Shown: positions 4,112-40,355, numbered from the stretch's first letter. The stretch is DNA of 64,000 bases from Candidatus Uhrbacteria bacterium RIFCSPLOWO2_01_FULL_47_17 (GCA_001791305.1 MGEI01000005.1:210698-274697), one strand, 5' to 3'. Notes: generated by a model not told the origin, from the sequence alone. Made by a program: numbers and translations.

Positions 4112-4522
4112 ATGTTAAAAAATAGTTATCTCAAATTCGGCGCAATGATCGGTTCACTTCCAGCTCTCATTCTTCCCCTTTCTGTTTCTGCTGGTGCAAC
4201 CGCAGCGCCAGGTCAAGGTCTTAATGCTTCTCAAGGCTCTCTCACAACTATTAAAGAAGGGGCGGGTATCACTGCAGGCGCATCGGACCTTCCAACCTTA
4301 ATCGGAAGAATCATTGGTGTTCTTCTTGGAGTCATGGGTATTATCTTGGTTATTTACATTGTTCTTGCGGGTATCACGTACATGACGGCAGGAGGAGATG
4401 ACGCAAAGGTCAAGAAAGCAAAGGCGATGATTCAAACCTCTGTTGTTGGTATCATCATCATCGTTGCGGCGTACTCCATTTCCAGTTTCGTTATTTCACA
4501 GATTATTACAGCAACCGCATAA
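4112..4522 (+). CDS. TrbC/VirB2-like pilin family protein, paralog 5
   Basis: Signal peptide, then core 'AGITYMTAGGDDAKVKKAKAMIQTSVVGIIIIVAAYSISSFVISQI'. It is nearly identical to paralog 4 in the core. Confidence 0.7.
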   Translation: MLKNSYLKFGAMIGSLPALILPLSVSAGATAAPGQGLNASQGSLTTIKEGAGITAGASDLPTLIGRIIGVLLGVMGIILVIYIVLAGITYMTAGGDDAKVKKAKAMIQTSVVGIIIIVAAYSISSFVISQIITATA

Positions 4523-4632
4523 ATACTACGGGGAAAACGGGGCGCAAAAACGTCCTGTTTTTTTGTTCCAATGAAAAAGCCCCGACACCCTTACAGCGAT
4601 TTGCTGTTTTGGATGCCGAGGCAAGGTTGAGA

Positions 4633-5490: not shown

Positions 5491-5559
5491 GGGAACTCCC
5501 GTGGTCCGAGTCGGACCGATTGTCTGTTTCAGACCGACTCGGAACCGTTCCTTGTCGAT

Positions 5560-6123
5560 CTATTTTCCGTACACCTTCTTGCGCACCTCTTTGAGGTTTT
5601 GCGCAGCGCATGCAGCGACTTCACCGTCTGTGCCAGGCGGACGTCCGCTCGGACACGCTGTCAGACCTCCGCCTGCCACTTGCGCGGCTTGCGGTTGGCT
5701 TAGCAAGGAAACCGGTACCTCACCGAGTCGCGGAAGTTGTCCCGGCACGTAGCCAAGGCTTGCCGCTTCTGCTGCGAGGATCGCAGGCGAGACGCCGTAT
5801 GGATTGGCGCCGTACGTTCCGTACGCGCCGTAGCCGTAGGTGTACCCAGCCTGGACATCAGAACGAACCGCGTCCTGGCCGAGCGTCGCCGGCATGCCTT
5901 TCGCGATCGCCGCTTGCGCGACGTCGCCAGACTGCAAGGTCTGCACACGCCGCGTTTCCGCATCGAGCAGGTTCCGAGCTCCGCCCGAGGTGCCACTGAA
6001 GTTCACCTCGAGCTTGGTCGTCCGAGCCGGCTTTCCCGCTTGCGCAGGCTCCGTCTCAACGATCGAGGTTTTCATCTGGGCGCAACTTGCGCACAGGAGC
6101 AAACTGAGTGCCAAGAATTTCAT
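5560..6123 (-). CDS. Gly/Tyr-rich secreted lipoprotein-like hypothetical protein
   Basis: 187 aa with signal and lipobox-like N-terminus MKFLALSLLLCASCAQ, and a low-complexity YTYGYGAYGTYGANPYG region. GC-rich. Confidence 0.5.
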   Translation of the reverse strand: MKFLALSLLLCASCAQMKTSIVETEPAQAGKPARTTKLEVNFSGTSGGARNLLDAETRRVQTLQSGDVAQAAIAKGMPATLGQDAVRSDVQAGYTYGYGAYGTYGANPYGVSPAILAAEAASLGYVPGQLPRLGEVPVSLLSQPQAAQVAGGGLTACPSGRPPGTDGEVAACAAQNLKEVRKKVYGK

Positions 6124-6379
6124 GGCCGTCCTTGTGCCGACTCGTCACACGACTGTCGGTTCTGAGAATGTGTTTTCCGATCCTTTCGGAAAAACAGAGA
6201 TTCGTTAAAGGCACGAAGAAGCTTTGAACCGTTGATTTCAAGCCTTTTTCGCATCTTCAACCATTCTTTGTAACGGCTTACTATACCATAAAAATGCCAT
6301 TTTGTCAAGGTATTATGGCCTTTTTCTTGACTTTTTGGCTGTTTTTTCGTGTAATGACAAAGCCATTTGGAGGCATTTC

Positions 6380-6772
6380 ATGAATGACGAGCCGTTTGGG
6401 CATCTCACGCACCTCAAGCAATTTCGTGACGAAGAAAAATCCTATCAGGAGCTTTTGCGAACCGCCCGTCGTATTGTTCGCGAGCGACAATTCTCTGGCA
6501 CGTTCCTTGCAGAAGATCTTTTGGCACGCGACCGTATATTTGGGTTGCTCAAAAAGCAAAACTTTAAAAACATGGATGAAACGCCCGTGAAATGGGAACG
6601 TCTCAAAGCCTTGTACGAAAAGCCGCAGACAGACGATCAAAAAAATTTAGAAACACTGTTGCTCATTCGATCCTTTTTGTTTTATGCCGTGGAACGTCAT
6701 GATGTCTATCGAACACCACTTGTTGGATCTCCACATGCGGTTCAGGGCTTTGCCTTCAGTAAAACCGGTTAA
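6380..6772 (+). CDS. Hypothetical protein
   Basis: Start moved to the ATG at 6380, preceded by GGAGG 6 nt upstream. A TTGACT..TGTAAT promoter-like pair lies at 6318-6350. No recognisable domain. Confidence 0.5.
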   Translation: MNDEPFGHLTHLKQFRDEEKSYQELLRTARRIVRERQFSGTFLAEDLLARDRIFGLLKKQNFKNMDETPVKWERLKALYEKPQTDDQKNLETLLLIRSFLFYAVERHDVYRTPLVGSPHAVQGFAFSKTG

Positions 6773-6877
6773 ACAAATAGCACATCGTCTTCCTGCCACC
6801 CTTCGCTGAAGCTTCGGGTGGCTTTTCTTTTTCCAGAAAATAAAAAATCGAAGGGGGTTAGCCTTCGACAGAGAATC

Positions 6878-15021: not shown

Positions 15022-15097
15022 GGCCACGTGGCGAAGTGGTTAACGCGGGGGTCTGCAAAACCTCTATGCATCGGTTCAACTCCGATCGTGGCCTCCA
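15022..15097 (+). tRNA. tRNA-Cys (anticodon GCA)
   Basis: Hand-folded cloverleaf. Acceptor GGCCACG/CGTGGCC, anticodon stem GGGGT/ACCTC with loop CTGCAAA, T-arm ATCGG-TTCAACT-CCGAT, U73 discriminator typical of tRNA-Cys, and an encoded CCA. Confidence 0.8.
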
Positions 15098-15145
15098 AAA
15101 AAACAATCAAACAAAAAACCCGAGCATAAGCTCGAGTTTTTTGTT

Positions 15146-15805
15146 TTAAAATACCTCAACGGTTGCGTACTTAAGTCCAAATTTTTTGGCTTGTTTAATA
15201 TCTTTCATCCAAAAGTCCATACGTTTCGTATAACGAGCGTTCATACGGTCTTGCACTGTAAAGATACGATCGCCATACAATTCTGGAATACGCACACGTG
15301 TTCCAAGTGGCAAAAAGTTTGCCGCAACAACGTCTTCCTGGTTACGTTCACAAACGTCCATACCGGACGCGGTGATACACGGCGTATCATCTGTTTGTGC
15401 AGGATCCGATGTATAAGCCGTCATTGGAACCGTAAACGTTTTACGTGGACGGGCATCTTCAGAAACCGGAAGGTTTCCAAAGGATTTTGTTTCGTTTTCC
15501 ATGGCGTCAATCATGAGTGCCACGGTTTTATGATCAATAGGCTTTTGGTCCGTAAGCATGTCTGCGTTCGCCATGGCTGGGAACAAAACATAGGTACCTA
15601 CCGTTGCCACAAAGGCAATAACAGAGAGATCAAGCGAATATTTGCGAACATGAACCATTTTTTGAATCAAAGTAAGGGAAATTTTGGATGTGAAAAAAGT
15701 AACGGTGCGTACAAACCCAAAATCGTTATCCCAAATGTAGGCAAACGCCGATTTGGTTTTCTTCTGAATTGTATTCAAACCCAATGTTTTGCGTTTATTT
15801 GTCAT
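15146..15805 (-). CDS. 3D-domain protein (MltA/YabE-like cell-wall hydrolase domain), membrane-anchored
   Basis: C-terminal 'MTAYTSDPAQTDDTPCITASG...VAANFLPLGTRVRIPELYGDRIFTVQDRM' is a 3D (Asp-Asp-Asp) domain. A TM/signal anchor lies upstream. The true start may be the internal Met at 15676. Confidence 0.65.
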   Translation of the reverse strand: MTNKRKTLGLNTIQKKTKSAFAYIWDNDFGFVRTVTFFTSKISLTLIQKMVHVRKYSLDLSVIAFVATVGTYVLFPAMANADMLTDQKPIDHKTVALMIDAMENETKSFGNLPVSEDARPRKTFTVPMTAYTSDPAQTDDTPCITASGMDVCERNQEDVVAANFLPLGTRVRIPELYGDRIFTVQDRMNARYTKRMDFWMKDIKQAKKFGLKYATVEVF

Positions 15806-15975
15806 ACCCGGCGTGTCCTTCCTCCTACAGAAGAGACGCTGGGCAGGGCAAATATGTTTCCATCAAAAAACCCTGTTTCCAGAGTGGCAATAGAATACCA
15901 CAAAAATGGGTTTTTGTCAATGGTTTCAGACCGATTTTTTCTTATTTTTTAGCTCAACAAAGCTAAATCACCCCT

Positions 15976-18900
15976 GTGGATGTTTTGTGGATTCTTTTGT
16001 CGAAAATCAAGAAATCAGGTATTCTATCCTCACTTATGTCCAAACACATTTATAACAAGCAAAGCTGGAAAAAAACTGGCAATTCCTCCTCATTTCTCGC
16101 CAAAACATGGAGGGCTTTTCGACGAACTCCTGTTGGAAAAAATCTTTGGTTGATCCTTCTCTTTTTTATCATCCTTGGCACCCTTTTTGTCTTGGCTCTC
16201 ATTGCGGTCGCAAGCCGAGATCTTCCAAGCCCAAGCAGTCTCACGGAACGAAAAATTTCGCAGACGACCAAAATCTATGATCGCACAGGTGAACACCTAT
16301 TGTATGAAATTGCTGGAAACCAGAACCGGACGTTGAAGAACTTTCAGTCTGGTTTTTGTGATCCACAAGATCCAAAACTGAGCTTAGATCCAAAAGGCAT
16401 TCCGCTTTACGCTGTTCACGCAACCATTTCCGCAGAGGATCGAAATTTTTGTGAGCACATTGGATTTGATTTTAAAGGATTTTCACGAGCGGTCGTTTCA
16501 AATCTTTTTGGGAAGCGGGTTGGTGGATCAACACTCACGCAACAGCTTGTTAAAAATGCCATTCTCTCCAACGAGAAAACACTGACGCGTAAAATAAAAG
16601 AGTTGATCCTGTCTCTTGGACTTGAACAAAAGTATTCAAAAGATGAAATCCTTCAAATTTATTTCAACGAAATTCCGTATGGATCGAGTTACTATGGTAT
16701 CGAAGCCGCGTCACAAAATTATTTTGAGAAATCAGTAAATGAGTTAACGGTCGCACAAGCCGCCACGCTTGCCGCTTTACCAAAAGCTCCAACAACCTAC
16801 TTAAATAATCCAGACAAACTGCAAGCACGTCGTGATTACATTTTGAGTGAAATGTTAAAGTTGGGATTTATTGATAAAACATCATTCGAAAATGCAAAAT
16901 CGGAAAAAACGCCTGTAACGGTTCAGGTGACAAACATTACGGCACCACATTTTGTCATGGACGTAAAAGCAGCTCTTGAAGATACGTATGGTCGTCGTAC
17001 GGTTGAAGAAGGTGGAATGAAGGTCATCACAACACTTGATTTTGATTTACAAAAAATTGCGGAGGAAGAGGTAAAAAGCGGAGTAGAAGCAAGATCCGAA
17101 CAATACGGTTTCTCAAACGCCTCCCTTGTTGCAGAAGATCCAAAAACCGGACAGATTTTGGCCATGGTCGGTTCAAAAGATTTTTTTGATAAAAAAATTG
17201 ATGGACAGGTCAACGTCTCAACACGTCACAGACAACCCGGTTCCAGCTTTAAACCAATCGTCTACACAAAAGCGTTTGAAATGGGTTATACCCCGAACAC
17301 TGTTTTATGGGATGTCACAACCAGCTTCCCAACAGATGTTGGAGAAGCTTACACCCCAAATAACTACGATCTAAAAGTACGCGGACCAATCAAACTGCGC
17401 GACGCTCTCCAATTTTCTTTAAATATTCCTGCGGTGAAAACGGTTTATCTTGTCGGTGTTGAAAATGCCCTCGATTTCGCCACACTGCTTGGATATGATT
17501 CGTTTGCAAACCACGCAAACTTTGGATTATCCATCGTCCTTGGTGGTGGTGAAGTTCGCTTAATAGACCATGTTCATGCATACGCTACGTTCGCAAACAA
17601 CGGTAAGGCGAACGAGCAAGTTTCCATTTTACGTGTGGAAGATTCAAATGGAAGTGTTCTTGAAGAGTGGAAACAAAAAGACGCGAAGGAGGTTGTGAAG
17701 GAAAATGCCACACACATGATTTCACATGTGTTGTCAGATAATAATGCGCGTATTCCAGTATTTGGAGCAAAAAGTTCTTTGCAGTTAGGCGACAGACCCG
17801 TTGCCGCAAAATCCGGAACAACAAATGATTATCATGATGCGTGGCTTATGGGATACACTCCTTCTCTTGCCGCAGGTGTTTGGGTTGGAAATAACAACAA
17901 TACTTCCATGAAAAGTAAGGCGGACGGTTCTATTGTTGCTGGCCCAATTTGGAACGCGTTTATGAAACGCGCTCTTGAAGGAAAACCAATCGAACCCTTC
18001 CCAACTCCCGACATTCGTCCAACCGGAAAAATGGTTCTTGATGGTTCCCTCGGCGCTCAGACTCTTTTGATTGACCGAGCGAGCGGAAAACTCGCGACAG
18101 AATTTACCCCAGATTCGTTTAAAGAAACACGTGTCTATGGTGGCTATCACGAAATTCTTCACTTTGTGATTCCATCAGATCCACAAGGTCCAATTCCATC
18201 TGAACCAGAAAAAGATCCTCACTACGCAGCATGGGAAACAGGGGTTCAAACATGGCTCACAAAACGTCAGCAGGAAACAGGTGTTCAACTCCTGACAACA
18301 AATCCACCAACAGAACAGGACGATCTTCACATTCCATCCAATAAGCCAACCGTTCAAATTCAGTTTCCTTCAAATAACTCTGTTTTGGATGGAAGGACTC
18401 TTCCAATTTCTGTTTCTGCTTCTGCTCCTCGTGGTGTTGTGAGAATCGAATATTTTTTGGACGACTTATTTATTGGTGCATCAAGTAGTTCCCCTTTTGA
18501 CACAACACTCACCATCCCATCGACAACCCCGAAAGGGATTCACTCTCTGAAAGCCGTCGCCTATGACAATATCGACAACAGTTCCTCAGACACAGTCAGT
18601 ATTCAAACAACCACGGAAGGTCAGGAAAATATTCTCAGCTTAATCGACCCGAAAAACGGACAAGTGATAGATAAAACAGCTGGAACATATACGGTTGTCG
18701 CTTCCATAAAAAATCCACAAAGTATAAGTACCGTAACCATCTTTGCCGAACAAATTGGCACGCAAGCGAAATCGATTATTGGTCAATTCTCAAACCCAAC
18801 ATCACCGTTTGCAACGGTTGATTGGAAAATTCCAGACTCTGGAAAATGGGTTTTATCAGCAAATGCAAAATTAAAAAATGCGTTTGATCTTGTCACAACA

Positions 18901-20171: not shown

Positions 20172-20229
20172 AAGTTTTAGTTCTGATTTTTTGAATAATA
20201 GAACTAAAGATAATGATAAGGCTGTGGAT

Positions 20230-20335
20230 GATCTGTATAACTACTTCCCTGCGGCTGAACTTAGCAAAATTTTAGGGAGATTGCCTGTGGATGTTGCCTG
20301 TGGAAACGTGTGTGTGGAAATGTGGATATAAATTC
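20230..20335. promoter_or_regulatory. DnaA-box cluster in the dnaA-dnaN intergenic region (oriC part 2)
   Basis: Several TGTGGA(T/A) motifs: GGCTGTGGATGA, CCTGTGGATGT, CCTGTGGAAAC, GTGTGGAAATGTGGATATAAA. Confidence 0.6.
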
Positions 20336-21839: not shown

Positions 21840-22125
21840 AACGACAATTTATGAGAAAAAACGATTCAAATACACGAGGTTGAATATAGGATGTGGGTAA
21901 GTGTAACCATTTATCCACAAGTGGGCAAGTGTGAGAATTGTTCATAAAGCTCTTGATAAGTTGTGGATAGCATGTTAGTATCTGGGGGCATGAGTAGAAA
22001 GTAGAGAGCAGAAAGTAGAAAGGGTAGAAAACAGAAAAAAACTGTTCCAAATCCATCTTCTTGTCTTTTTTTCTCTTCCCCCCTTTCTACTTTCTACTTT
22101 ACTACTTTCTACTACCCCAACCCCT
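21840..22125. promoter_or_regulatory. oriC part 1: DnaA boxes plus a long inverted repeat upstream of dnaA and rpmH
   Basis: TTATCCACA at 21911-21919 and an inverted TGTGGATAG at ~21963-21970. Arms GTAGAAAGTAGA... (21995-22030) and CTTTCTACTTTCTAC... (22084-22117) are reverse complements of each other. Confidence 0.65.
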
Positions 22126-24067: not shown

Positions 24068-25360
24068 TTACATCTTCACCATCACGTTCTTCACAAGTTC
24101 AATCACCTTTCTGTTCAAGACAACTTGTTCGAAGTACTGTCGATATTCCGGAGTGTAAATACGTTTTTTGTCTTCCGCGTCTTCATAACGCGCCGCGACG
24201 TCGTCGAGTTCTTTGTCGAGCTCTTCGTCGCTTACAGTAAGGTTCTCGCGTTTTGCAATTTCACGCATCGCAATCGCGACCTTGATGCGCATAAGGGCTT
24301 GTGGAGTGAAGTCGAGTTTCACTTGCACTAGCGTCTTTTCCAAACTTTGAATGTATTTTTCAAAGTCCATACCCTGTTCTTCTACACGGCCCTTCAATTC
24401 ACGAAGCATCTTTTCGATTTCTTCATTCAAGAGAAGATCAGGAATGTTTTCAAACTGTGTTTTGTTTGCAATCAGCTCAAGAGCTTCTTTTTCTTGGCGC
24501 ATTTGTTCTTCGCGAATTTTCTCATCGAGAAGATTTTTGTGAATGAGTTCTTTCATCATCGCAAAATCTTTAAGTCCGAGTGATTGTGCGAACGAGTCGT
24601 CCATTTGTGGTGGCTCGAGATGAAATAATTCTTTTAAGACAACTTCGAAGTCGATATCTTGTCCTGCCAAAAATGCTTGCGCGTGATCTGCCGGAAACGC
24701 AAGAGTAAAAGTTTTTGCATCACCCTCTTTTAATCCAATCAACTGTTCTTTGAATCCAGGAATATAATATTCTTCTGCGAGATATACGGCGTGATTTGGT
24801 GATTGTCCACCTTCGATCGGAACTCCGTCTTTTTTCATGTCCATCGAAACAACCGCTTTATCTGTTGCACTCACGATCGAACCAGATGCGGCACGAACTT
24901 CTTTTGTTTGCATGCGCGTGAGATCTTTGAGCGCGAGTTCAACATCATGGTCAGCAACTTCTGGAACTTTTCCTTGGACAGACAAACTTTTAAAATCTGC
25001 GAGTTCTTTGACAGCCGGCATGCGTGTTACTTCTGCGGTAAACACCAGTTCATTTCCTGGCGCCATTTTTTCAACATCAATTTTTGGAGAGCCGACGGTG
25101 TCGATTTCGTTATCTAAAAGTGCTTTCACAAAAAGACTTCGCACGATTTTTTCAAGCGCCTCTTCCATGATTTTTGTTTCCCCAACGCGTTGTTTCACAA
25201 TCTCATAACCAGCCTTTCCTGGGCGGAAACCTGGAATGGTTGAGTGTTCAGAAATGTGTTCAGCGGCAGCCTCAAGAAACGGAGTTTGTTCTTCAACAGA
25301 AACGGTAAAGGTGATTTTCACGAGTCCTTTTTCTTGTTCTTCGACAGTAATATTTGGCAT
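24068..25360 (-). CDS. tig: Trigger factor
   Basis: 'MPNITVEEQEKGLVKITFTVSVEE...IPGFRPGKA' N-terminal ribosome-binding domain signature. Start taken at the internal Met. Confidence 0.85.
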   Translation of the reverse strand: MPNITVEEQEKGLVKITFTVSVEEQTPFLEAAAEHISEHSTIPGFRPGKAGYEIVKQRVGETKIMEEALEKIVRSLFVKALLDNEIDTVGSPKIDVEKMAPGNELVFTAEVTRMPAVKELADFKSLSVQGKVPEVADHDVELALKDLTRMQTKEVRAASGSIVSATDKAVVSMDMKKDGVPIEGGQSPNHAVYLAEEYYIPGFKEQLIGLKEGDAKTFTLAFPADHAQAFLAGQDIDFEVVLKELFHLEPPQMDDSFAQSLGLKDFAMMKELIHKNLLDEKIREEQMRQEKEALELIANKTQFENIPDLLLNEEIEKMLRELKGRVEEQGMDFEKYIQSLEKTLVQVKLDFTPQALMRIKVAIAMREIAKRENLTVSDEELDKELDDVAARYEDAEDKKRIYTPEYRQYFEQVVLNRKVIELVKNVMVKM

Positions 25361-25463
25361 AAAGATGGTTTGAATTTCTGCGAAAGTGTAGCGAATAAAC
25401 AAAATTGCGTCAATGTTGTGGAGTGGTGTTCGTTTCAATAAAAAAATCGCCAGGATTTGGCGA

Positions 25464-27464
25464 TTAAGACTTTTTGACCATGAGCACGGTGCTCACCTGA
25501 GCGGCTTTCTTAAACATATCATCCGGCGTGCTCGGCCCCTGGGTTTCATCCAAGAGGACGTGTGCGACACGCTGTGAGATTTCACGCAAGGCAGCATGGC
25601 GGCGAACCGCATCTGTGTATCCGTCAAAGAGTGTGTGACCCAAGTTGAGCGTGATGATGGTGTAGCCGTCTCCGCGCTCAATCCAGCTCGTTTTGGCATT
25701 TGCGTCCGGCGTGCCACGCATCGTCGTTGAGGAGAGTTCGAACAAGTGATCTTCAACAATGAATTGCCGATCTGTGGTCTCCCCGGTTTTCGGTGATTCA
25801 CCTTCATCCTGTTCTCGAATGCGAATGGTACAGTTTGCCGTGTCACTCGGATTGTTTTTGTTTACAACCGTGATGTCGAAGTCTCCCGCTTTGTCGCTCG
25901 AGAGAATTTCAGCTTCAGTTACATCTTTCGAAATCTTGATTTCCCCTCCCCATTTCTGGTAGGTCCATACAAGATCCGCTCCGGCGGGCACTTCATTAAG
26001 TCGGACAAATCGACGGTCATGGAATCCCATCCGAACGGTTGGTTTCCCAAACCGCATCGGAATCGTTGCGAAGATGTTGATCGTGATGATGGCGCTTGGC
26101 GCATCCTTCACGTCCCCCATCATACTCACACGCAGCGTGTGCCCTTCACCAATATCACGGGCTGTGTAGGTCACGCGTGTTCCGGTGTTGGTATCCAAAC
26201 TGCCGCCACTTGCCTTTGCATCCCAATGGTATGGACGCCCCGGTCGCGGATCCTTGATTTCGAACACGTAGCTACGTCCAGGAACCAGGTCCACGCAATG
26301 GCGATTCAGAGCGATTTCGATCACCTTTTGCTTGATCGGTGCTTCGCCCGTTGCTTCGTGAATATTTCGACACACATCTGCAAGCAGAGTTGCGTCATCG
26401 GTCGTCACGATTTCTTCTGAGCGCATCCCGAGTTCGTTCTCGACGAGCGGAACGATTTCAAGACGCAGGAACTTGAGGAGCGCTTCACAGAAGTGCTCAT
26501 CTTCAAGCATGTTCGCGTTGAATTCCTTGCGGCTATTCACAGCGAACTTATTTGCCTTCGGAATGTCGATGCTGCCCACAACGTACGGGTGACGCAACAC
26601 GATGTCAATTTCTCGCGCAAGTGTGCGATACCGCGGGTCGTGTGTGAACGCACGCGCAAACGTGGTCCAAGAACACACGGGGCCCATCGCACCCATCATC
26701 ACGAAATCTGCGCTGCGGTCACTTTGCTGAACCACATACAGATTCCACTCAACGTCTCCAAGATGTTTCACGGGCGTTGTGGTACGTCCCTCAATCGGCT
26801 TGCCTTTCAGCTCGCGCGGCTTGAGTTCGAATGTCTGTACTCCGCCCGTCTCATCCACGGTTTCCACACGAATCTTTCGTGCAATGTGTGGGGAGAGTTT
26901 TTCGGCGAGGCCTTCAATCAATCGTTCCGCTGTCCGTTGTGCCTGCTGCGACTTGGTGCCAACCGTGAGGTCGCGCCAGGTCACAATCGTTCCACTCGTT
27001 TTCAGCAGATGATCGAATGAGAGCTTCTTTGCGGTCCACGCGAGCGTTGTATTTCGTTCAAACCACGCGTCATGCATGCGTTCTTTTGTGAGAACGATTT
27101 CAAACGCTGTCTGATCTGCAGCTTTTGTGATCGTGTGACACTCAACCGCGTGGTTGATGAAGCCGATGCGTCCGGTACCGTTGCGGCCCTTTTTCGAATC
27201 GTCTTCACGTGCAGCGCTGTCACACAAATTGGTATAGGCTTCCCGACCGCGCTCATCCATGCCCTGTCCGTTGTCGCGGAATTGAACACAGCTGATTTCA
27301 CGTTTCGGATCCGTGTAGAAACGAATAGTGAATTCCGTCGCTCCCCAGTCGAAGGCGTTTTCGGCGATTTGCACCACCGCATCCGCAAATCCTGTGAACC
27401 CATCGGTCAACTTGTCGAGAATCGATTTGTCAACGCGATTTCGCCTTACATGTGGTACTGCCAT
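25464..27464 (-). CDS. GHKL-superfamily (Bergerat-fold) ATPase-domain protein with a ~500-aa uncharacterised C-terminal region
   Basis: The N-terminus carries all three Bergerat motifs: 'IAENAFDWGATE' (ExxNAxD N-box), 'FRDNGQGMD' (DxGxG G1-box) and 'KKGRNGTGRIGF' (GxxGxG G2-box). Start is immediately adjacent to the stop of the upstream gene (27464/27465), with GGAGG embedded in that gene's end. Confidence 0.65.
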   Translation of the reverse strand: MAVPHVRRNRVDKSILDKLTDGFTGFADAVVQIAENAFDWGATEFTIRFYTDPKREISCVQFRDNGQGMDERGREAYTNLCDSAAREDDSKKGRNGTGRIGFINHAVECHTITKAADQTAFEIVLTKERMHDAWFERNTTLAWTAKKLSFDHLLKTSGTIVTWRDLTVGTKSQQAQRTAERLIEGLAEKLSPHIARKIRVETVDETGGVQTFELKPRELKGKPIEGRTTTPVKHLGDVEWNLYVVQQSDRSADFVMMGAMGPVCSWTTFARAFTHDPRYRTLAREIDIVLRHPYVVGSIDIPKANKFAVNSRKEFNANMLEDEHFCEALLKFLRLEIVPLVENELGMRSEEIVTTDDATLLADVCRNIHEATGEAPIKQKVIEIALNRHCVDLVPGRSYVFEIKDPRPGRPYHWDAKASGGSLDTNTGTRVTYTARDIGEGHTLRVSMMGDVKDAPSAIITINIFATIPMRFGKPTVRMGFHDRRFVRLNEVPAGADLVWTYQKWGGEIKISKDVTEAEILSSDKAGDFDITVVNKNNPSDTANCTIRIREQDEGESPKTGETTDRQFIVEDHLFELSSTTMRGTPDANAKTSWIERGDGYTIITLNLGHTLFDGYTDAVRRHAALREISQRVAHVLLDETQGPSTPDDMFKKAAQVSTVLMVKKS

Positions 27465-28916
27465 TTACTTTCCTCCATTGGATTTGTTGAATTCTGACGC
27501 GACTCCGACCATGGAGCGTGTCCCCTGAACAATCTCCCACGCCGCTTTTGAGCCCATCAAGTGATGGAGCCCTTCATGTGCAACGAAGAGTTCTGCAAGT
27601 TCTGGACCAAGAATCGGCGTGATCGTTTTCCGAATGAGATCCGGATTCAGCTCACTGAGCGCAACCAGCACTTTCCGCAGATGGACGATCGCGGTTCGAA
27701 CGTCTTCAATCTGTTCCATTGTGACACGTTCATCTTTTCGAAGGTGCCACGTTTTCGGATCAAGACAGTGCTCCACGCCACCAATCACGGAACCAATCGG
27801 TTCATAGATCGGAGTTACGGATGGTGTCGCAACCGTTTCTGTTCGTGCCTTGAGTCGTGCGACCAAAGCTTCGAGTCCATCGATCACAACATCTTCGAAC
27901 GAATCTTTGGATGGCGTGATTGGTTTTGGTTCAGAAACGACGGGGGTCGCAACCGGAGTCGCAACAGGTTCCACTTTCTTTTGGACAGAAGGCTTCGCTT
28001 TTGATTGTTTTGCGACAGGCTTCACATCCATGAGGTCTTTGAGAGGGACTTCCACTTCCCAAATTCCCGCATCTTCCTTTTTGCGATACGTCTTGCGGTG
28101 CTCGTCAAACGTTTCCAAGAGCGCGGGATACGATCGCTCGACAAGCGCGCGCAGAATTCCTTCGACGGTTTCCGGATAACAACTTGTCTTTTCTTTTTCA
28201 GGCTTCCATTCAAGGAGTCGAGAAATGGTGTTCTCTTTGATTCCCGTAAGGCTTTCAATTTTGACAGCCGTGTGACCGGGATACCGATGAAGAAATTCTT
28301 GGAGCGCGGATGCAAAATCCGTGACTCCAGGAAAAAATTCTTGCGAGTCTCCGCCAAGGATGGCTCGACACATCAAGATGAACTGTGCATCTTCAAGACA
28401 CGAGATCTTGAGAAAGCCTCGCATGAGATTGCTCAAGAGGATTTTCAACATCTCCACACCGGGTTTGTTGATTCCTCTGTTCCAACCACTCAACGTCCCT
28501 GACGGAACACCCATCTGAAGCGCGAGGTAGAAATTTCCTCCGTACTCTTTGATGATTTTGCGCAAGCGATTCACGACGTCTTCACGGTGAATATCACGAT
28601 CGAAATCAATGTGTTCACGCAGATCAGGACACTCGTTCCACAACTGACGTTTTGCTTCACAAACCATCCAGGCGTCGATATCAACACCGGTTGTTTCGAG
28701 AATGGATTGAAGACCGGTTGTGACAAGATCAATCGTTGGTGTGTTTGCAAGCCAGGCAGGAAGACTCTTTCTGCCTCGAATGCCGTGTTTTTTGAACACA
28801 GCCTGCGCTTCTTCAACGGTTTTGAGTCCGTTGTGCTGCATCCACATTTCCCAAAGCACGGCGAGGGTGATGTCTTTTCCCCAAACGGCTGTTGGAAGTT
28901 TCTTGAGCTTTTCCAT
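27465..28916 (-). CDS. Hypothetical protein with two XRE-like helix-turn-helix segments, first gene of the GHKL operon
   Basis: 'FYLALQMGVPSGTLSGWNRGINKPGVEMLKILL' and 'AVKIESLTGIKENTISRLLEWKPEK' resemble Cro/C1-type HTH. A Pro/Val/Ala/Thr-rich linker (VEPVATPVATPVVSEPKPITP) follows. Confidence 0.5.
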   Translation of the reverse strand: MEKLKKLPTAVWGKDITLAVLWEMWMQHNGLKTVEEAQAVFKKHGIRGRKSLPAWLANTPTIDLVTTGLQSILETTGVDIDAWMVCEAKRQLWNECPDLREHIDFDRDIHREDVVNRLRKIIKEYGGNFYLALQMGVPSGTLSGWNRGINKPGVEMLKILLSNLMRGFLKISCLEDAQFILMCRAILGGDSQEFFPGVTDFASALQEFLHRYPGHTAVKIESLTGIKENTISRLLEWKPEKEKTSCYPETVEGILRALVERSYPALLETFDEHRKTYRKKEDAGIWEVEVPLKDLMDVKPVAKQSKAKPSVQKKVEPVATPVATPVVSEPKPITPSKDSFEDVVIDGLEALVARLKARTETVATPSVTPIYEPIGSVIGGVEHCLDPKTWHLRKDERVTMEQIEDVRTAIVHLRKVLVALSELNPDLIRKTITPILGPELAELFVAHEGLHHLMGSKAAWEIVQGTRSMVGVASEFNKSNGGK

Positions 28917-28928
28917 GGATCCTCCGGC

Positions 28929-28965
28929 TGAAAAGAACCGTTCTGAAATACGGCCATTCCGTACA
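28929..28965. promoter_or_regulatory. Nested palindrome (candidate operator) in the divergent promoter region
   Basis: TTCTGAAATACGGccattCCGTAcATTTCAGAA, a near-perfect 13-14 bp inverted repeat immediately upstream of the 27465..28916 gene start. A TTGACA..TACATT promoter-like pair at ~29015-29045 faces the opposite gene. Confidence 0.45.
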
Positions 28966-29105
28966 TTTCAGAAGGGGTCAACCTATCAATTTAAGCCTGT
29001 TATGTCAAGGTTCTATTGACAGATCCGGCTCGCGTGGTACATTTTTACATCCTTTTTTCGAATGACGAAGAAAGGTGTTTGTTCAGACAACCAAGGAGTG
29101 TCTCA

Positions 29106-30298
29106 TGGGAGATGCAGCGACGGTACGTGCAGCTTTATCGGGCTCAGATCAAAAAGACCCGAAAATCATCTATCTTTCACCCGTTCTTGCCAACGTCTGG
29201 CTTGCGCTTCAGGTGGAATACAGCAAGCGGAATGCTCCGATTCCGGCAGATGTTGCTGCGGAGATCGTGCGAAAAAATTCGAAGAACACGAAAAATCCGT
29301 TCTCAACGCTCAACAACCTCGACAAGCGAGGGGTGTTGCAAATAGCGTCAGGCAGCTCAAGTCGTCGTACACGCATTCCTCTCACAATCGGGATTGTCAT
29401 CACAACCGGAAAAGCTCCGAATGTGAAACAGATCTGGCCTGTGGAAGAAGCGGTGACTAAATTGCCGAAGCTGCCTACCGAGCCGAAGACGGAAGCCAAA
29501 GTGAAGAAACCTCCAGCCCCGAAGCCTCCTGCTCTCACAGATCTTCTCGGAGAGCCTGTGTGGGTGTATCCAAAAACACATAAGCCTGTGATGGTACAGG
29601 TGACAACACTCGAACTCTACAAAGCCCTTCTTGAAGGGGCTCGAAAAGACGAGTTTGCCCCAAAGACGACGAGTGAAATAGTTGTATATATCGCACACAT
29701 GAATGAGAAAAAAGACAGCTTGATTCATGCGATCAGTCGCATGGAAAAACAAGGATTGTTTCTTCATGTGAGCGGAAAGAAGACCAGGGTGGATCCGGCA
29801 AAGCGCGTGCTTGTCTGCCGACCTGTTCAGGTGTTCCGACATGCGAGTTGGACTTCGGGAGAAACAGTAACGTTCATTCCTCAAGAATGTGAAGCGTGTG
29901 TTGATACACGCATGCTCGCACAAGCGCAAGAAACGGTTCAAGAGCCGGTTACAAAGGTTGAAGCGCAATTGGAACACGCTCCCTCGAGCGCCCTGCCTAC
30001 AAAGGCTGAACTTGCAGTGAGGCTTACAGATAAGCAGCAGGAAGCGGAACAGCTCGCGCAGACCTGGCGTGCAGAAGAAGAAACTCTCGTGCAAGAGTTC
30101 GCGACAATCCAGGAAGAGATCGCGGATCTCGACCGGCGCCGTCATGCGCGCATGCAGCGGTTTCAAGAAGTACAAGTTGCTCTTGCCGCAAATCAGATTG
30201 GAAAACCGGAAGGCTTGGATGCACTGCGTCATGAGATCGAAGATCTTGGCATGCTCGTTTTGAACTACGATCGGCTCGTCCCGCATTTGCAGCGGTGA
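29106..30298 (+). CDS. Hypothetical protein with a C-terminal coiled coil
   Basis: Start chosen at the ATG preceded by AAGGAG (29106) rather than track start 29075. Lys/Pro-rich linker (KVKKPPAPKPPA). Heptad-like C-terminus (QQEAEQLAQTWRAEEETLVQEFATIQEEIADLDRRR). Confidence 0.5.
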
Positions 30299-30384
30299 GA
30301 AATACTTACATCGGAATGAACCCCGGTGTTTTTTTATTGAAATTTTTGTATGAAAAAACCACCCGTAGCTTTAGCGAAGGGTGG

Positions 30385-31923
30385 TTAGAGATCTTCGTCG
30401 TCATTTGCGGCTTTTTCTTTGCGTTCGGCAGCAGCAGTCTCTTTGTAGATGGCTTGTCCATCCAGAATGGCCGCGCGAATGGCGTCCGCAAACGGACTGT
30501 CCTGAAGAAACTGCCGCGCAAGAGCAAGACATTCTGGCTTTGGCTTCCAAAGCCAGCTGAACTTGAAGCGTTCCATGTCGTACAGGTTCTTGAGCTGATC
30601 AGGAACGAGCGCGAATGCGTCCGCATCCCGGGGCGAGATGAGCCCGCTTGCAAGGACGCTTCCCACAAGGGTTTTTTTCCCTTTGTATCCACGAAACATG
30701 TTGGATTCCGGTTTGTTACACACGTCAGAGGCAATCATGAACAGTCGCGCATGAGCATCCTTTCGCGAACATTTGTCCTGAAACAAATCTTCTGGATTCA
30801 GTTTACGCACTTTGAGAAGCAGGGCTTCTGCAAGTGGCAAGGCTGTCGCGAGAAAATCTTTCAGAGCCTTCGGACGTTCCGGGAAGGTTGTTTGGTACAA
30901 GTTCATGTTGCCAATCCGTGCGCTTTCTTCGCTGCGCGGATTCACAAAGCTCAATTCCCTTTTCGCATGGTCGACTTGACGATCCACCTCTGCAGGGATT
31001 GGAAGGGCAAACAAGGAACAGTATCCCTTGATGCTTGCCGCGCGATCCCAAAGTCCAGAGGCTTCTTCGTTTGTCAGGCGGTAATCCGCTTTGTGCTGCT
31101 CGATGCGTGCACCGATTGTTGTCGCTTGTTCATCGAGTTCGTTGAGTCGAACAAGAGACGAACGCGCGAGACGAATCAGTGATTCGAGTTCGCTCACATC
31201 TTCCGGCTGGTTGAGAGGAAGACATTTTTGCATGCCATCGCGCAAGATGCTGAACTTCGCATCTAGGCGATGTTTTTGCATGAGGTCATCCGTCAGGCTT
31301 TTGCGTGCATGGAGCACGTCTTGAAACTCGGAACGATCGCGACTGAACGCTGTGTAGATTTGACGAATACGATGCGGAAGTCCGATCGCTTGTTCGTACA
31401 GTTCTCGCACAAGAGTTCGCACGCGATCTTCAAGCTCGGCGTCCACACGCTGCTTGATCATCTGTTCTGTGATGATGGGAGTTGCCAATGCTGGCGCTGA
31501 GATCCTCGAGACAACCTCGGGCTGCTTCGCGCGTTCAAGATCTGTCATCTTGCACGAAAGATCGGTGACACGCGTTCGGTATCCCTCGATTGCTTTCCAC
31601 GCTTCAACAGAATCTCCAGAGATGACCGATTGAATGAGGGCTGCAAGAGAGAATGTTGGACCGCATACACCAAGCTCGGCGGCGAAATCACGATCACGTT
31701 CGATCGTTGAGAGATCGAGCAGAAACTGATCAACACGCACAAAGCGTTCTCGTTTCTTTTCGAGAAGTTCAAGCTGAACCTGTAGATTGGTGATTTGACG
31801 CTCAAGGTTTTTGCGCGCAACGCGTTCTTGCTGACCTTCTTGGTCATAGATCGCGATCATCTCATTCAGTGTTCGAATCTCAGCGGTGAGTTTCTGAATG
31901 CGAATTGTTTCTGGCGAACTCAT
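30385..31923 (-). CDS. Hypothetical coiled-coil protein (512 aa)
   Basis: Long ORF, N-terminal coiled-coil (LTAEIRTLNEMIAIYDQEGQQERVARKNLERQITNLQVQLELLEKKRE). No nucleotide-binding motif seen. Confidence 0.5.
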   Translation of the reverse strand: MSSPETIRIQKLTAEIRTLNEMIAIYDQEGQQERVARKNLERQITNLQVQLELLEKKRERFVRVDQFLLDLSTIERDRDFAAELGVCGPTFSLAALIQSVISGDSVEAWKAIEGYRTRVTDLSCKMTDLERAKQPEVVSRISAPALATPIITEQMIKQRVDAELEDRVRTLVRELYEQAIGLPHRIRQIYTAFSRDRSEFQDVLHARKSLTDDLMQKHRLDAKFSILRDGMQKCLPLNQPEDVSELESLIRLARSSLVRLNELDEQATTIGARIEQHKADYRLTNEEASGLWDRAASIKGYCSLFALPIPAEVDRQVDHAKRELSFVNPRSEESARIGNMNLYQTTFPERPKALKDFLATALPLAEALLLKVRKLNPEDLFQDKCSRKDAHARLFMIASDVCNKPESNMFRGYKGKKTLVGSVLASGLISPRDADAFALVPDQLKNLYDMERFKFSWLWKPKPECLALARQFLQDSPFADAIRAAILDGQAIYKETAAAERKEKAANDDEDL

Positions 31924-32055
31924 GTTAAAGCCCCATTTCCGACACTTGCCGGAGCAACGAGCATATCAGATAAAGGCGTTTTGTCAAGAATTCGTTGACA
32001 AAGTTCCCCTATTTTGTTAGTTTTCTTTCTCCGCTTCTGTGGAGAAAGGACACAC

Positions 32056-33054
32056 ATGCGTGATTACGATTATCCTGCAAAGAATACGGTTAGGGACGCA
32101 TGGATGCGTTTTTTACCGGAGTTCTTTCAAGATACGCAGGCCCACGGGCTTTATCTTCCAGGACACCAAAATCTGGAATTTCCTTGTTATGAACAGAAGC
32201 GATTGTCAAAAGATCGACTGATAGGGATCGAACATGATCCGAGTCGGTTTGCTGCGGTGAAACGTAAAGCAAATGGCATTCGCTTGATTCATGGAAATGT
32301 GAGGGATGCTGTTTGTGAAATAGAACAACAGCATATTCCGCGTCTGCGTTTTGCCAATCTGGACTTTGAAGGGTTGTACAGCCGTTTGATCAGTGAGATT
32401 CTTTCTCTTTTCCGCGTTTTTCCTTCAACGTCTGGTGGATATTTGTGTGTGACGAGTTTTAGTTCACGCGACGAAGAAACACTCCTGCAAGGAATGATTC
32501 ATACGTCCAAGTTTTATTCCGGACGTGCCGAGCGTACCGAATTCATGAGCGACTACGGTCGCATGGTGAATCGATATGTCGCATTAAAGCATATCCTGAA
32601 AGATCCTCGTGCATCTGACCATAGTCACCTTACTCGCGAACTTGGATTTCTTTGGTGGATGACGCTTGTGATGGGAGTTATGCAATTCCCTGGCGACACA
32701 TACGGAATCATTGATGAGGCGTATCTTACAGAGCTTGATGCAATTTTAGAACGGATTGACGAACGATCGCGTGCGCGCAGCGAAGGCACGCTTGATTTTC
32801 ACTTGGTCTATGATACTGAACTTGCAACACGGATGTGCGCTCATACTTCGTGTCTGTGGCCATCTGGTTTTCAGCATTTTATTTACTACACAGCACCGGG
32901 TCTCCCGATGCATGTGTGGATGTTGAAAATCGATTTCATCAATACGAAAAAGAAGCCGAGCCATCAAGACGTTCTTGAACAGGTTTGGCAGTTTGCAACG
33001 CGCACCCCGCTTATCTACGTTGATAAGATGGGTACGGCGCATAGCCTGGTGTGA
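32056..33054 (+). CDS. Hypothetical protein. The Rossmann/methyltransferase-like signals are weak.
   Basis: Start at 32056 preceded by GGAGAAAGG. Segments 'LIGIEHDP', 'IHGNVRD', 'ANLDFEG' are loosely reminiscent of class I MTase strands but not diagnostic. Confidence 0.45.
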   Translation: MRDYDYPAKNTVRDAWMRFLPEFFQDTQAHGLYLPGHQNLEFPCYEQKRLSKDRLIGIEHDPSRFAAVKRKANGIRLIHGNVRDAVCEIEQQHIPRLRFANLDFEGLYSRLISEILSLFRVFPSTSGGYLCVTSFSSRDEETLLQGMIHTSKFYSGRAERTEFMSDYGRMVNRYVALKHILKDPRASDHSHLTRELGFLWWMTLVMGVMQFPGDTYGIIDEAYLTELDAILERIDERSRARSEGTLDFHLVYDTELATRMCAHTSCLWPSGFQHFIYYTAPGLPMHVWMLKIDFINTKKKPSHQDVLEQVWQFATRTPLIYVDKMGTAHSLV

Positions 33055-33064
33055 GGAGATTTAA

Positions 33065-33739
33065 ATGAGCGTCTCAAAATTCCTGATCGAACTCGGAAAA
33101 GCAGCGATTGAACTTGGAACACGGCTCGACATGCAAGACGCGCGACTCGATTCGCTCGGGGCACGTCGTGAGCCGCCGAAGGAAGGGGGCGAAATTACGG
33201 ATGTGATTCGCGATGCGATCATCAGGTCTCGCGCGGAATGTTCAGAAGAAGATTGGTTGCGACTGAACGGTCGGCGCGATCAAGAGTGTGTTCGTTACGG
33301 AATCACGACCGAGTCGGCCGCCGCAATTCTCGCCGGCGCGACGAAGCGTGAAAAGAAGAACGGAAACGGAAATGGCCACGCGGCTATTGTCCCCACTTCG
33401 GAGACGGTGGCTGAGACGCTGTCGTCGCCCGTTCCAAAGAGCGGCGCAAAAAAAGTTCGCAACATGTTTGATCCAAACGAGTGGGGCGAGGTCTCGCTCG
33501 AGAAGGGTGGTTCACGGAGTACGGCTCCTGCAGAACCGTTTCGCAAAGCAAATCAGCAAGACACCGACATCGTCATTCTCGTGCATCAGCTTGCTCTCGA
33601 GCATGGGAAAGATTGGAGTGAAGTGCGTCAGCAACTCTGTTGCACACGTCGTCTGACACGTCAGCAAGTTGCGGCGATCCTTGCGGAACATACGAAAGAA
33701 AAACAGAATAAGTTCACCGCGAACGCCGCACACGCTTAA
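33065..33739 (+). CDS. Hypothetical protein
   Basis: 224-aa ORF tightly following the previous gene (10-nt gap). No domain recognised. Confidence 0.45.
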   Translation: MSVSKFLIELGKAAIELGTRLDMQDARLDSLGARREPPKEGGEITDVIRDAIIRSRAECSEEDWLRLNGRRDQECVRYGITTESAAAILAGATKREKKNGNGNGHAAIVPTSETVAETLSSPVPKSGAKKVRNMFDPNEWGEVSLEKGGSRSTAPAEPFRKANQQDTDIVILVHQLALEHGKDWSEVRQQLCCTRRLTRQQVAAILAEHTKEKQNKFTANAAHA

Positions 33740-33828
33740 GACCCTTATCGCTTTCGAGACTCTCGAAGCGATTTTTTATTTACTCATAAAAAAATCGACC
33801 CGCGTGCTGCGAATCGATTTTATTTTTC

Positions 33829-35820
33829 CTACACAAGGAAGCCAACAATGAGTAACGCGACAATGTTCAAAATTTTGATCATTGGGTTAATTGCTGGTCC
33901 TGCTGTGTCTTTGTATGGATCACCGACGGTATCTCCTGTCACCGCTGCTTTGTGGGCATTGGATCCTTTTCCGCCGTAGTTTCCAGACTCAATATATTTT
34001 TTTGCATTGTCCCAAGCTCCTCCGCCTGTTGTCATCGAAATCGCCATGAAGAGTCCTGTGACGATGGAACCGATCAAGAGTCCTCCGAGCGCCTTTGGTC
34101 CAAAGGCGAATCCAACAACGATTGGGGCAAACACAGCAAGCAATGACGGAGCGATCATGAAATTGATCGCAGCTTTTGTCACAATGTCTACAGCCTTTGC
34201 GTAGTCTGGCTTTCCGGTTCCATCCATAATTCCCGGGATCTCACGGAATTGGCGGCGAACTTCTTCGACAACGGATCCAGCAGCTTTTCCAACGGCTTCC
34301 ATCGCGAGTGCGGCAAATAAGTACGTAACGATTCCTCCAAGAAACAAACCGGAGAGCACATAAGGATCGCTAACCTCGAACACAATATGAGAACCTTTTG
34401 CGGCGAGCGCATGCACATAGTCTCCGAAGAGCACGACCGTTGCGAGCCCAGCTGACCCAATCGCGTATGCTTTGGTCACAGCTTTTGTGGTGTTTCCAAC
34501 AGCGTCGAGTGGATCTGTCACGTTGCGAACGTCTTCTCCAAGATCTGCCATTTCCGCAATTCCACCTGCGTTATCTGTGATTGGACCAAAGGCGTCAATC
34601 GCAACGACAATTCCTGTAAGAGACAACATCGCCATTGCGGCAACGGCTACGCCGTAAAGTCCAGCGAGGGAGTTCGCGATCAAGATTCCAAAGACAATCG
34701 TGAGAACAGGATACGCCGTTGATTTCATGGAGAGCGCGAGCCCCGCAATGATGTTTGTACCGTGTCCGGATTCAGATGCGGCTGCAAGATCTTTTACAGG
34801 TTGATGATTTGTTCCTGTGTAATATTCTGTGATGAGAATCATGGCTGCAGTAATCACGAGTCCAAGAAGGGCTGAGTAGTACACGTTCATGACGTTTAAT
34901 CCTGCAACACCTGTGAGCATGTACTTTGTGACAGGATAAAAACCGATTGCGGCGAGTGCGCCTGCGACAAATAATCCTTTATAAAGTGCGTTCATGATGT
35001 TTCCATCTTTTCCGATTTTGATGAACAACGTTCCAACAATCGAACAAACGATGGCAATCGCTCCAAGGGCGATTGGATACAAAATAACTTGTGGGTTGTT
35101 TGCAAATAAAAGTGCTCCGAGCAACATAGCTGCAACAGATGTAACAGCATAGGTCTCGAAAAGATCCGCGGCCATTCCTGCACAGTCTCCAACGTTGTCT
35201 CCAACGTTGTCTGCAATAACCGCTGGATTGCGTGGGTCATCTTCTGGAATTCCCGCTTCTGTTTTTCCAACCAAGTCCGCACCAACGTCAGCGGCTTTGG
35301 TAAAAATTCCTCCACCCAAACGAGCGAAGACAGAAATAAGAGATCCTCCAAATCCGAGTCCGATAAGGGCTTGGACATCTTGTGTCACCATGTAAAAGAG
35401 CGTGACACCAAGGAGGGCGAGTCCAACTACAAAGAATCCGGTGACAACTCCGCCACGTACAGCAACGTCCATGGCCGCAGATAATCCACTTTTTGCGGCT
35501 TCTGTTGTACGAACGTTTGCGCGTACAGAAACGGACATTCCAATGTAGCCAGCAACTCCAGAGAGAACAGCACCGATTAAAAATCCGATCGCGAGGGTCC
35601 ATCCTAAAGCAAAGCCAAGGATCACAAAAACGACAGCACCGATCATACCGATCATTTTATACTGGCGCGCCATGTATGCGTTTGCCCCTTCTTGAATCGC
35701 AAGAGCGATTCCCTTCATTTTTCCTTCACCTGCCGGGAGCTTTAAAATCCATTGAGTAAGATAGGCTCCATAAATGAGGGCAAGCAAGCTCGCCCCGATC
35801 GCGTACATCGAAATATTCAT
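33829..35820 (-). CDS. hppA: Membrane-bound proton-translocating pyrophosphatase (H+-PPase)
   Basis: 663 aa, many TM helices, and conserved 'GDNVGDCAG' / 'DNVGDNVGD' and '[14 protein letters not shown]' motifs. Confidence 0.9.
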
Positions 35821-39852: not shown

Positions 39853-40355
39853 AGGAAACGAATTAGCGACCGGTTTAGATATCGGGTTTTGGGTTCAATC
39901 CTTTATTGACGTTCAAAACTCGACATCCATACCGGTACAACTACTTCATTTAAGAAGAAGCTCTTGTCATCTACCATTCAATGGTTTTACCCAGGCGAAG
40001 ACCAGAAGGTCGTCATAATTTGGGCGAACCTAGATGTTGTTCGATTTTGTTTTTGTTTTTAATCAGAACAGTAGATGTGCGTGAGATCATGGTTCCTGAA
40101 TCATAATTCAAGCGTGGGGAGCTTGCCGACAGCTGTGGTCGGGATAAAGGAGGATCTCAGAGATGGAAAAGGTACGAAGCAGTGTTTCACGACTGCACAT
40201 ATATAATACCAAAAAAAGACCCAAAGGTCAATCTATACTTTTGTGCTTTGTTGAGAATTAAAATCGTACTATGAGAAAAAAATGTGTGCACAGCATATGT
40301 GGAAGATAAAAAGTTATCCACAATTTATACCACTTATCCCACAGTTATCCACAGC

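Follow-up and report, generated by a model that had tools for sequence, protein, structure and literature searches.

The stretch analysed here (the window) comprises 64,000 nucleotides of one strand of Candidatus Uhrbacteria bacterium RIFCSPLOWO2_01_FULL_47_17 (GCA_001791305.1 MGEI01000005.1:210698-274697) and contains a cassette of six genes, named A to F, between tig and the H+-PPase gene hppA. Comparison with related genomes makes it very likely that the site between the hppA terminator and the tig promoter is a single hotspot, at which whole, deeply diverged alleles of the cassette are exchanged, lost and replaced by homologous recombination in the flanks and not by an integrase. The combined reading, in which this exchanged hotspot cassette encodes a DNA-directed conflict or defence system of the paraMORC kind, has in our judgement a little under an even chance of being right.

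Exchange of cassette alleles between hppA and tig

The location of the block given in the preliminary description was confirmed by Pfam, which found an H_PPase match (E 5e-263) for the flanking gene at 33829-35820 (minus strand) and Trigger_N/Trigger_C matches for 24068-25438 (minus strand), where the true start of tig is probably the ATG at 25360. Between them lie six open reading frames (ORFs) in four transcription units with two divergent regions. Relatives were found by scanning a genome collection with tig and by look-ups of homologs of A and E; the window genome is called W and the related loci carry L numbers. Relative to the cassette-free L002, blastn defines the whole cassette as an insertion of 8,373 bp (25417-33789), with window 38000-33790 aligned to L002 5718-9922 and window 25416-23235 to L002 9945-12127.

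A check for presence or absence in relatives, proposed with the first description of the block, found it missing from two genomes and replaced in three. In L002 (tig 89% identical) and L005 (tig 76%), hppA is directly followed by tig. A second terminator-like hairpin matching that of the right cassette edge remains at 9860-9960 of L005 though the cassette itself is gone, and this hairpin is a deletion scar, a trace of cassette decay. L001 (tig 90%) carries one unrelated 638-aa gene at the site (Y638, L001 7921-9837), and L004 (50-9850) carries a related 601-aa gene (Y601, 31-34% identity to Y638), both with a coiled-coil tail. Beside Y601 are genes for a ParB-like protein, a ResIII helicase, a DEAH/HA2 helicase, a Rce1-like protease and a sigma region-4 protein; PADLOC gave no specific match for this alternative cargo of L004, only generic helicase similarity. 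The cargo upstream of tig in L003 resembles that of L001 and L004. Homology of protein C to Y638/Y601 was considered and is not supported (hhalign probability 1.5%).

The gene order of the window (F, E, D, C, B, A) recurs at this position in L012-L015, L017, L018, L020, L023, L024, L027 and L030-L033, and the same cassette holds this site in at least 12 lineages. Cassette-bearing lineages at the site reach down to a tig identity of 55-61%, with A at 24-29% identity, and A and E still co-occur at this level of A identity. L022 shows the same gene order on a contig that ends before identifiable flanks. Extra genes are present between D and E in L012 and L024 and between C and D in L022, and in L017 gene F is deleted with a 3' remnant left at 4495-4682. 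The cassette or its core is located elsewhere in the genome in L025, L026 and L034; the last is the most distant context, where the C-terminal domain of B together with A is the only pair kept and adjoins rnpA/yidC. A 1323-aa neighbour there could be an alternative partner of this core. The cassette is lineage-specific to Uhrbacteria/Patescibacteria, and protein A of the window is 100% identical to A3C09_02465 of Candidatus Uhrbacteria bacterium RIFCSPHIGHO2_02_FULL_47_44. That the same site is held in lineages with tig as divergent as 55-61% argues for an old, lineage-specific resident of a recombination hotspot.

The exchange is most visible among close relatives. Five cassette-bearing genomes with tig at least 85% identical (W, L015, L017, L023 and L024) contain three allele classes of A, with identities of 82% and 77% inside the two two-member classes and only 38-49% between classes. 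The A protein of W is 52% identical to that of L012 (tig 59%) compared with 47% to that of L017 (tig 90%), and, as judged from such sequence comparisons, the cassette phylogeny conflicts with the flank phylogeny. Between L015 and L017, the synonymous divergence (dS) of the flanks is 0.42-0.62, whereas that of the cassette ranges from 1.9 (E) to saturated (A, B and D), and the nucleotide identity of 86-89% in blastn ends about 40 nt inside each cassette edge. Because the cassette is saturated while the flanks remain at a dS of 0.4-0.6, and because identity breaks at the edges, we conclude that the alleles are exchanged via recombination in the flanks. Between W and L015 the dS of A, E and F is 0.6-1.3, similar to that of the flanks (0.9-1.1), which fits co-inheritance of these two cassettes over that interval.

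Markers of an integrative element were also looked for. As the preliminary description had it, no integrase or recombinase domain was found in the block by Pfam, no tRNA gene is adjacent (the nearest are at 15022 and 49107), and no repeats occur in the flanks or at the edges beyond terminator T-tracts. A 12-bp direct repeat (CGATTTTTTTAT) at both junctions was considered as an attachment (att) site and rejected, since its copies are those T-tracts and are not shared by other alleles. No transposase, relaxase, replication initiator or terminal repeat was found in the cassette. Searches of PHROGs (nothing significant) and of viral, phage and plasmid collections gave no relatives (IMG/VR was searched for A and E, INPHARED phages for A), and an origin from a phage or plasmid was therefore rejected. 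Among the usual signs of an integrative element, the block shows patchy distribution and atypical composition and has no integrase, tRNA or att repeats. The locus illustrates cleanly how, in an uncultured phylum, cassettes can be exchanged at a fixed hotspot without an integrase.

The composition of the block bears out the earlier impression of a higher GC content than in the flanks. GC is 0.505 in the block compared with 0.4615 in the rest of the window, an elevation that is real but modest: windows of the same size have a mean GC of 0.467 (sd 0.024) and 5.8% of them reach the value of the block. The tetranucleotide distance of the block (0.206) is slightly above that of every other window (maximum 0.201), making it marginally the most deviant. 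As an argument for foreign origin the GC content is weak, since values of up to 0.55 are reached elsewhere in the window. In nine of nine related loci (L012, L015, L017, L018, L020, L024, L026, L030 and L031) the cassette exceeds its own flanks by 2 to 11 points, and this excess holds whatever the genome GC (0.42-0.62). We infer that the GC excess is an intrinsic property of the cassette rather than a mark of recent foreign origin, possibly as a by-product of frequent recombination through GC-biased gene conversion. A second GC-rich stretch, at 4000-9300 of the window (0.51-0.55 against the window mean of 0.467), contains large ORFs without a Pfam match at 4609-5703 (plus strand) and 6878-9313 (minus strand, 811 aa) and may be another accessory region.

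Some variation was also observed around the cassette in the relatives. A 357-aa SMC_N/AAA_15/AAA_21-type ATPase gene, absent from the window, lies between tig and the AP-endonuclease gene in L024 (191-1264), so that this gap is another variable spot beside the cassette. In L020, a tandem array of units of about 29 bp (CTAAAGCCTGCGGCTACCACGCGACAACA), with an assembly gap in it, is found at 3780-4110 between the hppA terminator and gene F, and a 330-aa reverse-transcriptase (RVT_1) gene is present at 15055-16047, a few kb beyond tig.

The six proteins and their control

Five of the six ORFs have exactly the coordinates given for them earlier, and the third starts at an in-frame ATG at 29105, or alternatively at a GTG at 29075, rather than at 29106. 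All six show dN/dS values of 0.09-0.27 against the L015 ortholog, and on this ground they are taken as real, functional genes under purifying selection. The earlier statement that they lack housekeeping signatures stands, as Pfam, NCBIfam, PADLOC and PHROGs revealed none in any of the six proteins. The sole Pfam match is HATPase_c_3 at the N-terminus of A (E 3.5e-8), and the NCBIfam, PADLOC and PHROGs scans gave nothing significant.

Gene A (25464-27464, minus strand) encodes a 666-aa protein with a predicted GHKL and transducer (S5-like) ATPase region, two immunoglobulin (Ig)-like beta-sandwich domains and a C-terminal beta/helical domain. The ATP motifs of the family (N box ExxxNxxD, DxGxG and GxxGxG) are represented by ENAFD (N36, D39), DNGQGM (G66, G68) and GRNGTGRIGF (G93, G96, G98), and their residues show no variation among 13 close homologs and a conservation of at least 90% among 65 distant ones. 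The closest profile matches in the PDB are MORC2, PMS1/2 and MutL. Foldseek with the AlphaFold2 (AF2) model (mean predicted local distance difference test score, pLDDT, of 78) retrieved Hsp90, MutL, TopoVI-B and MORC2 at E values of 1e-13 to 1e-10, with alignments of 370-500 columns across the GHKL domain and the S5-fold transducer (Hsp90, MutL LN40, MLH1, MORC2 and TopoVI-B). Sequence motifs and predicted structure both place A among the GHKL ATPases, in the MutL/Hsp90/TopoVI-B/MORC branch with a transducer. An exhaustive profile search gave about 184 representatives of the family at E below 1e-10, nearly all of 640-710 aa, and the sole named one is from Patescibacteria. Further matches of A were to viral rIIA and BIG2 domains. 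The Ig-like domains (residues 388-550; window 25815-26303) match BIG2 domains and repeats in giant metagenomic proteins of 1,400-5,500 aa, with up to 21 stretches per protein, and their fold is shared with presumably extracellular giant proteins of the candidate phyla radiation (CPR).

Gene B (27465-28916, minus strand; 483 aa) precedes A, and its stop codon directly abuts the start of A, making the two translationally coupled. The product is a multi-helix-turn-helix (HTH) protein with a conserved C-terminal helical domain. It contains several HTH-like segments, including a weak Cro/C1-type HTH at residues 111-163 (3bs3, E 0.01; phrog_4, E 0.009). A MutH-like PD-(D/E)xK nuclease was considered for B and rejected, as D81, E87 and K89 of the putative motif TGVDIDxWMVCEAKR are invariant in a set of 8 sequences only; with 13 sequences, E87 is replaced by V (L026) or Q (L030) and D81 by E, and the segment reads as HTH. 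An apparent B-A fusion in L031 (a 1107-aa ORF) was discarded as well, because its N-terminal 430 aa are an arginine-rich out-of-frame read-through and not B.

Protein C (29105-30298, plus strand; 397 aa counted from the ATG) is the most variable component. Its alleles can barely be aligned, although all keep a P-x-E-C motif, the coiled-coil tail and, at the end, an invariant N-Y-D; dN/dS against L015 is 0.11. Its N-terminus contains one or two winged-helix-like modules as judged by eye, and residues 280-380 (about 100 aa, C-terminal) gave weak PDB profile matches to coiled-coil proteins only. Protein D (30385-31923, minus strand; 512 aa) has coiled-coil-like N-terminal and central regions, with weak matches of the coiled-coil type only, and a conserved C-terminal half without a recognisable domain. 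A crude heptad scan flags residues 5-74 of D and 333-362 of C. The two long coiled coils of the preliminary description are therefore partially supported, by weak matches in the tail of C and in stretches of D.

Gene E (32056-33054, plus strand; 332 aa) is followed after 10 bp by gene F (33065-33739, plus strand; 224 aa). The AF2 model of E is confident (pLDDT 90.9; predicted template modelling score 0.91), and the top 50 PDB matches in Foldseek are all S-adenosylmethionine (SAM) methyltransferases, with E values of about 1e-5 and a core of 135-160 columns superposed at a root mean square deviation of 3.3-4.2. Two acidic residues are conserved, E59 (nearly invariant) where beta2 ends and D103 (invariant) where beta4 ends. 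The model thus confidently predicts a class-I (Rossmann) SAM-methyltransferase fold with a helical insertion, and E is a putative methyltransferase. F is a small protein with two related helical motifs (...AAILAG.TK... and RRLTRQQVA...) and invariant residues W140, D166, R195, L197, Q200 and Q201. The remote-homology searches suggested for each protein at the outset were fruitful for A, identified as a GHKL ATPase, and for E through its structure only, while PDB profile searches of B, C, D, E and F gave only noise, HTH or coiled-coil matches.

The genes are arranged as B then A (minus strand), C (plus), D (minus) and E then F (plus). The two divergent promoter regions described earlier were recovered at 28917-29104 (B/C) and 31924-32055 (D/E), both with sigma-70-like sites, among them promoter-like sites of C at 29016-29043 (plus strand, TTGACA-16-TACATT) and of D at 31987-31960 (minus strand, TTGACA-16-TATGCT). 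The palindrome TGTCAA-N7-TTGACA, in effect two -35 hexamers placed back to back, has exactly two copies in the 64 kb against 0.31 expected, and both are in the divergent regions of the cassette: one at 29003-29021 (B/C), a candidate shared operator, and one at 31982-32000 (D/E). The B/C copy is at the same place in L015, L017, L023, L024 and L030, with variants in L012 and L031; the D/E copy is also present in L015, L017, L020 (one mismatch) and L026. The alleles that keep the element are very divergent. The strict palindrome in both divergent regions suggests joint control of the four units, plausibly exerted by one HTH protein of the cassette. Looser versions are found at other divergent promoters of these genomes, and the palindrome may in part reflect general promoter design.

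Terminators delimit the units. A terminator-like hairpin at 30308-30329 (plus strand) lies in the convergent gap between C and D, whose two facing hairpins are kept in L015 and L017. The terminator of the E-F unit (33752-33768, plus strand) faces that of hppA (about 33788-33828) and marks the right cassette edge; the terminator of the B-A unit (25445-25465, minus strand) marks the left edge, immediately upstream of the promoter-like site of tig (25413-25385, minus strand, TTGACG-17-TACACT).

The cassette lies about 3.5 kb from the DnaA-box cluster and likely origin, with DnaA boxes clustered at 21892-21970 (upstream of dnaA) and at 20223-20329 (between dnaA and dnaN). An oriC inside the block was considered, as the cumulative GC skew has its minimum at about 28.8-29.7 kb, but it was rejected in view of these clusters. 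The block itself contains no DnaA box except one match with one mismatch at 32038, and the skew minimum, which coincides with the B/C divergent point, probably reflects the strands on which the genes are transcribed. Over the whole window, 31 DnaA boxes were observed against 11 expected, and two perfect TTATCCACA boxes are found at 40314 and 40345, 31 bp apart (cluster 40314-40353), just upstream of the gene ending at 41648.

Possible function of the cassette

CPR bacteria (Patescibacteria) have tiny genomes, mostly without CRISPR, and their defences are poorly known; they are thought to live on other cells and to scavenge DNA. Defence loci typically vary between presence and absence, have hypervariable alleles and are lost in a patchy way. 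Restriction-modification (R-M) systems are among the few defences reported in these organisms (PMC12455944). The 8-kb cassette is costly for a genome of roughly 1 Mb yet is kept by many Uhrbacteria lineages, and hence it probably matters to the cell. We tentatively propose, with rather less than even confidence, that it serves in conflict or defence directed at DNA, much like the R-M-type operons predicted for paraMORC.

In such a system, A would act as an ATP-driven, MutL/MORC-like dimerising clamp that works with the co-translated multi-HTH protein B, the B-A pair forming the conserved motor core. The hypervariable C and the coiled-coil protein D could be recognition or adaptor subunits, E (with F) might supply a self-marking or modification activity, and the shared TGTCAA-N7-TTGACA would co-regulate all four transcription units. 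At the effector step, an unrecognised nuclease might carry out cleavage, a nuclease of the host might be recruited, or unmarked DNA might be compacted or silenced in an ATP-dependent way. More speculatively, and with considerable doubt, the cassette could be a Patescibacteria-specific, previously undescribed immune or conflict system, made of a GHKL clamp with an HTH partner, hypervariable recognition subunits and a cryptic self-marking enzyme, with ancient balanced alleles at an origin-proximal hotspot; it could then do without a classical nuclease and might, for example, use ATP to entrap or silence unmarked DNA that enters the DNA-scavenging CPR cells.

Several observations weigh against a defence role. 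Motif I of E is atypical, with GLYLPGxENLE in place of the glycine-rich SAM loop, and E has no sequence-level match to the PDB, Pfam or any methyltransferase family, a Pfam scan of E-family members included. The C-terminus of A contains no conserved catalytic (acidic/histidine) cluster outside the ATP site among 65 homologs. Searches of A to F with Pfam, NCBIfam, PADLOC, PHROGs and PDB profiles found no domain of a nuclease, a helicase or another effector, a cryptic nuclease being possible as only A and E were modelled. PADLOC-DB v2 gave no match for A, B, C, E or F, and that of D to LmuB (E 0.01) is coiled-coil noise. No known defence genes were found next to the cassette.

The preliminary description took the block for a horizontally acquired accessory island. 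It is indeed accessory and exchanged, being absent from L002 and L005, replaced in L001, L003 and L004, and in conflict with the flank phylogeny. A recently acquired foreign island, specific to this genome and from outside the lineage, would account for this absence from L002 and L005 and for the deviating GC and tetranucleotide composition, but the synteny conserved at this site in lineages with tig at 55-61% largely refutes it. All homologs found are in Uhrbacteria/Patescibacteria-type contexts, the dS of A, E and F between W and L015 is like that of the flanks, and L005 bears a deletion scar, leaving such a recent, one-off arrival the least probable of the explanations. A domesticated or decaying mobile element of CPR bacteria, integrative or plasmid-like and with no host-beneficial role, would explain the patchy presence, the raised GC in nine of nine loci, the other genomic sites in L025, L026 and L034, and the presence of other cargo at the same site, such as the ParB-like gene, two helicases and sigma-r4 protein of L004. 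The HTH, winged-helix-like and coiled-coil proteins would then be regulators or replication and partition factors, and the GHKL ATPase a DNA-handling enzyme. However, none of the mobility genes (integrase, transposase, relaxase), replication initiators or terminal repeats sought was found, IMG/VR and the phage and plasmid collections hold no relatives, the edges are plain terminators with the swap boundaries in host flanks, and all genes are under purifying selection, so that we regard this origin as unlikely.

A role in the chromosome itself, as a dispensable, lineage-specific organisation or silencing module near oriC in which MORC-like compaction is directed by HTH proteins, is to our mind equally unlikely. 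Many lineages share its fixed position close to the DnaA-box cluster, the L034 copy is next to rnpA/yidC, five of the six proteins look nucleic-acid-related and no nuclease was found, all of which agree with such a role; a housekeeping-type function, however, does not predict three alleles at 38-49% identity among close genomes, nor complete loss in L002 and L005 and relocation in L025 and L026. Finally, the cassette could be a selfish addiction or incompatibility locus combining modification with a toxic activity, and be kept by post-segregational killing or strain incompatibility. The pairing of a modification-fold enzyme with an ATPase, an allelic diversity resembling balancing selection and the tight, shared regulation are consistent with it, and it presents the same in silico picture as a defence system. 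Nevertheless, the cassette is readily lost without replacement (L002 and L005) and no toxin domain was recognised, and an addiction locus appears improbable.

If the preferred reading of a defence or self/non-self DNA system is correct, the cassette would extend the GHKL (MORC/paraMORC) conflict systems, largely untested in their bacterial mechanisms to our knowledge, by a member specific to CPR, and would provide a natural allelic series for studies of specificity.

Comparison with known systems

ParaMORC ATPases, which combine GHKL and S5 domains, have been predicted to form part of R-M-type systems that also include methylases (Iyer, Abhiman & Aravind 2008, PMC2292703). Similar to paraMORC and prokaryotic MORC proteins, A begins with a GHKL domain whose ATP motifs are intact, continues with an S5/transducer domain and ends in a C-terminal extension specific to its family. 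As in paraMORC operons, HTH proteins are found alongside, here with a gene for a predicted methyltransferase fold, and the distribution is patchy with lateral exchange. However, the cassette lacks a superfamily II helicase, a recognisable endonuclease and the MORC-specific S5 motif, as a regular-expression search for GhXhhpXXRhl, also with a relaxed pattern, gave no match in 65 A-family members. Unlike the paraMORC systems, its E matches no DNA methylase family by sequence, the C-terminus of A bears Ig-like domains, and the A family is apparently restricted to Patescibacteria and located at a fixed chromosomal site.

MutL, which works with MutH and Dam, is also a GHKL and transducer ATPase and is among the best structural and sequence matches of A. 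In both cases the ATPase is coupled to a DNA-binding partner and a methyltransferase-type gene. In contrast to MutL, A does not end in a dimerisation/endonuclease domain (DQHA(X)2E(X)4E), nor is B a nuclease of the MutH type; moreover, the cassette is accessory and hypervariable, whereas MutL is universal and single-copy. Tiamat (TmtA) and other GHKL genes of PADLOC show weak GHKL similarity (E 1e-5 to 1e-3) to some distant members of the A family. This similarity covers the generic ATP-binding domain only, A of the window has no PADLOC match, and TmtA differs from A in architecture and in length, with about 1,500 aa compared with about 666 aa.

At the level of the locus, the closest parallel is with the phage-defence hotspots of enterobacteria and vibrios, which are swapped by flanking homologous recombination. 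Like these, the cassette occupies one site between core genes that holds alternative cargo or none, with sharp boundaries and no integrase. It differs from them in that no cargo at the site is a recognised defence system, and in that the same type of cassette, in very divergent alleles, dominates the site across a family-level clade.

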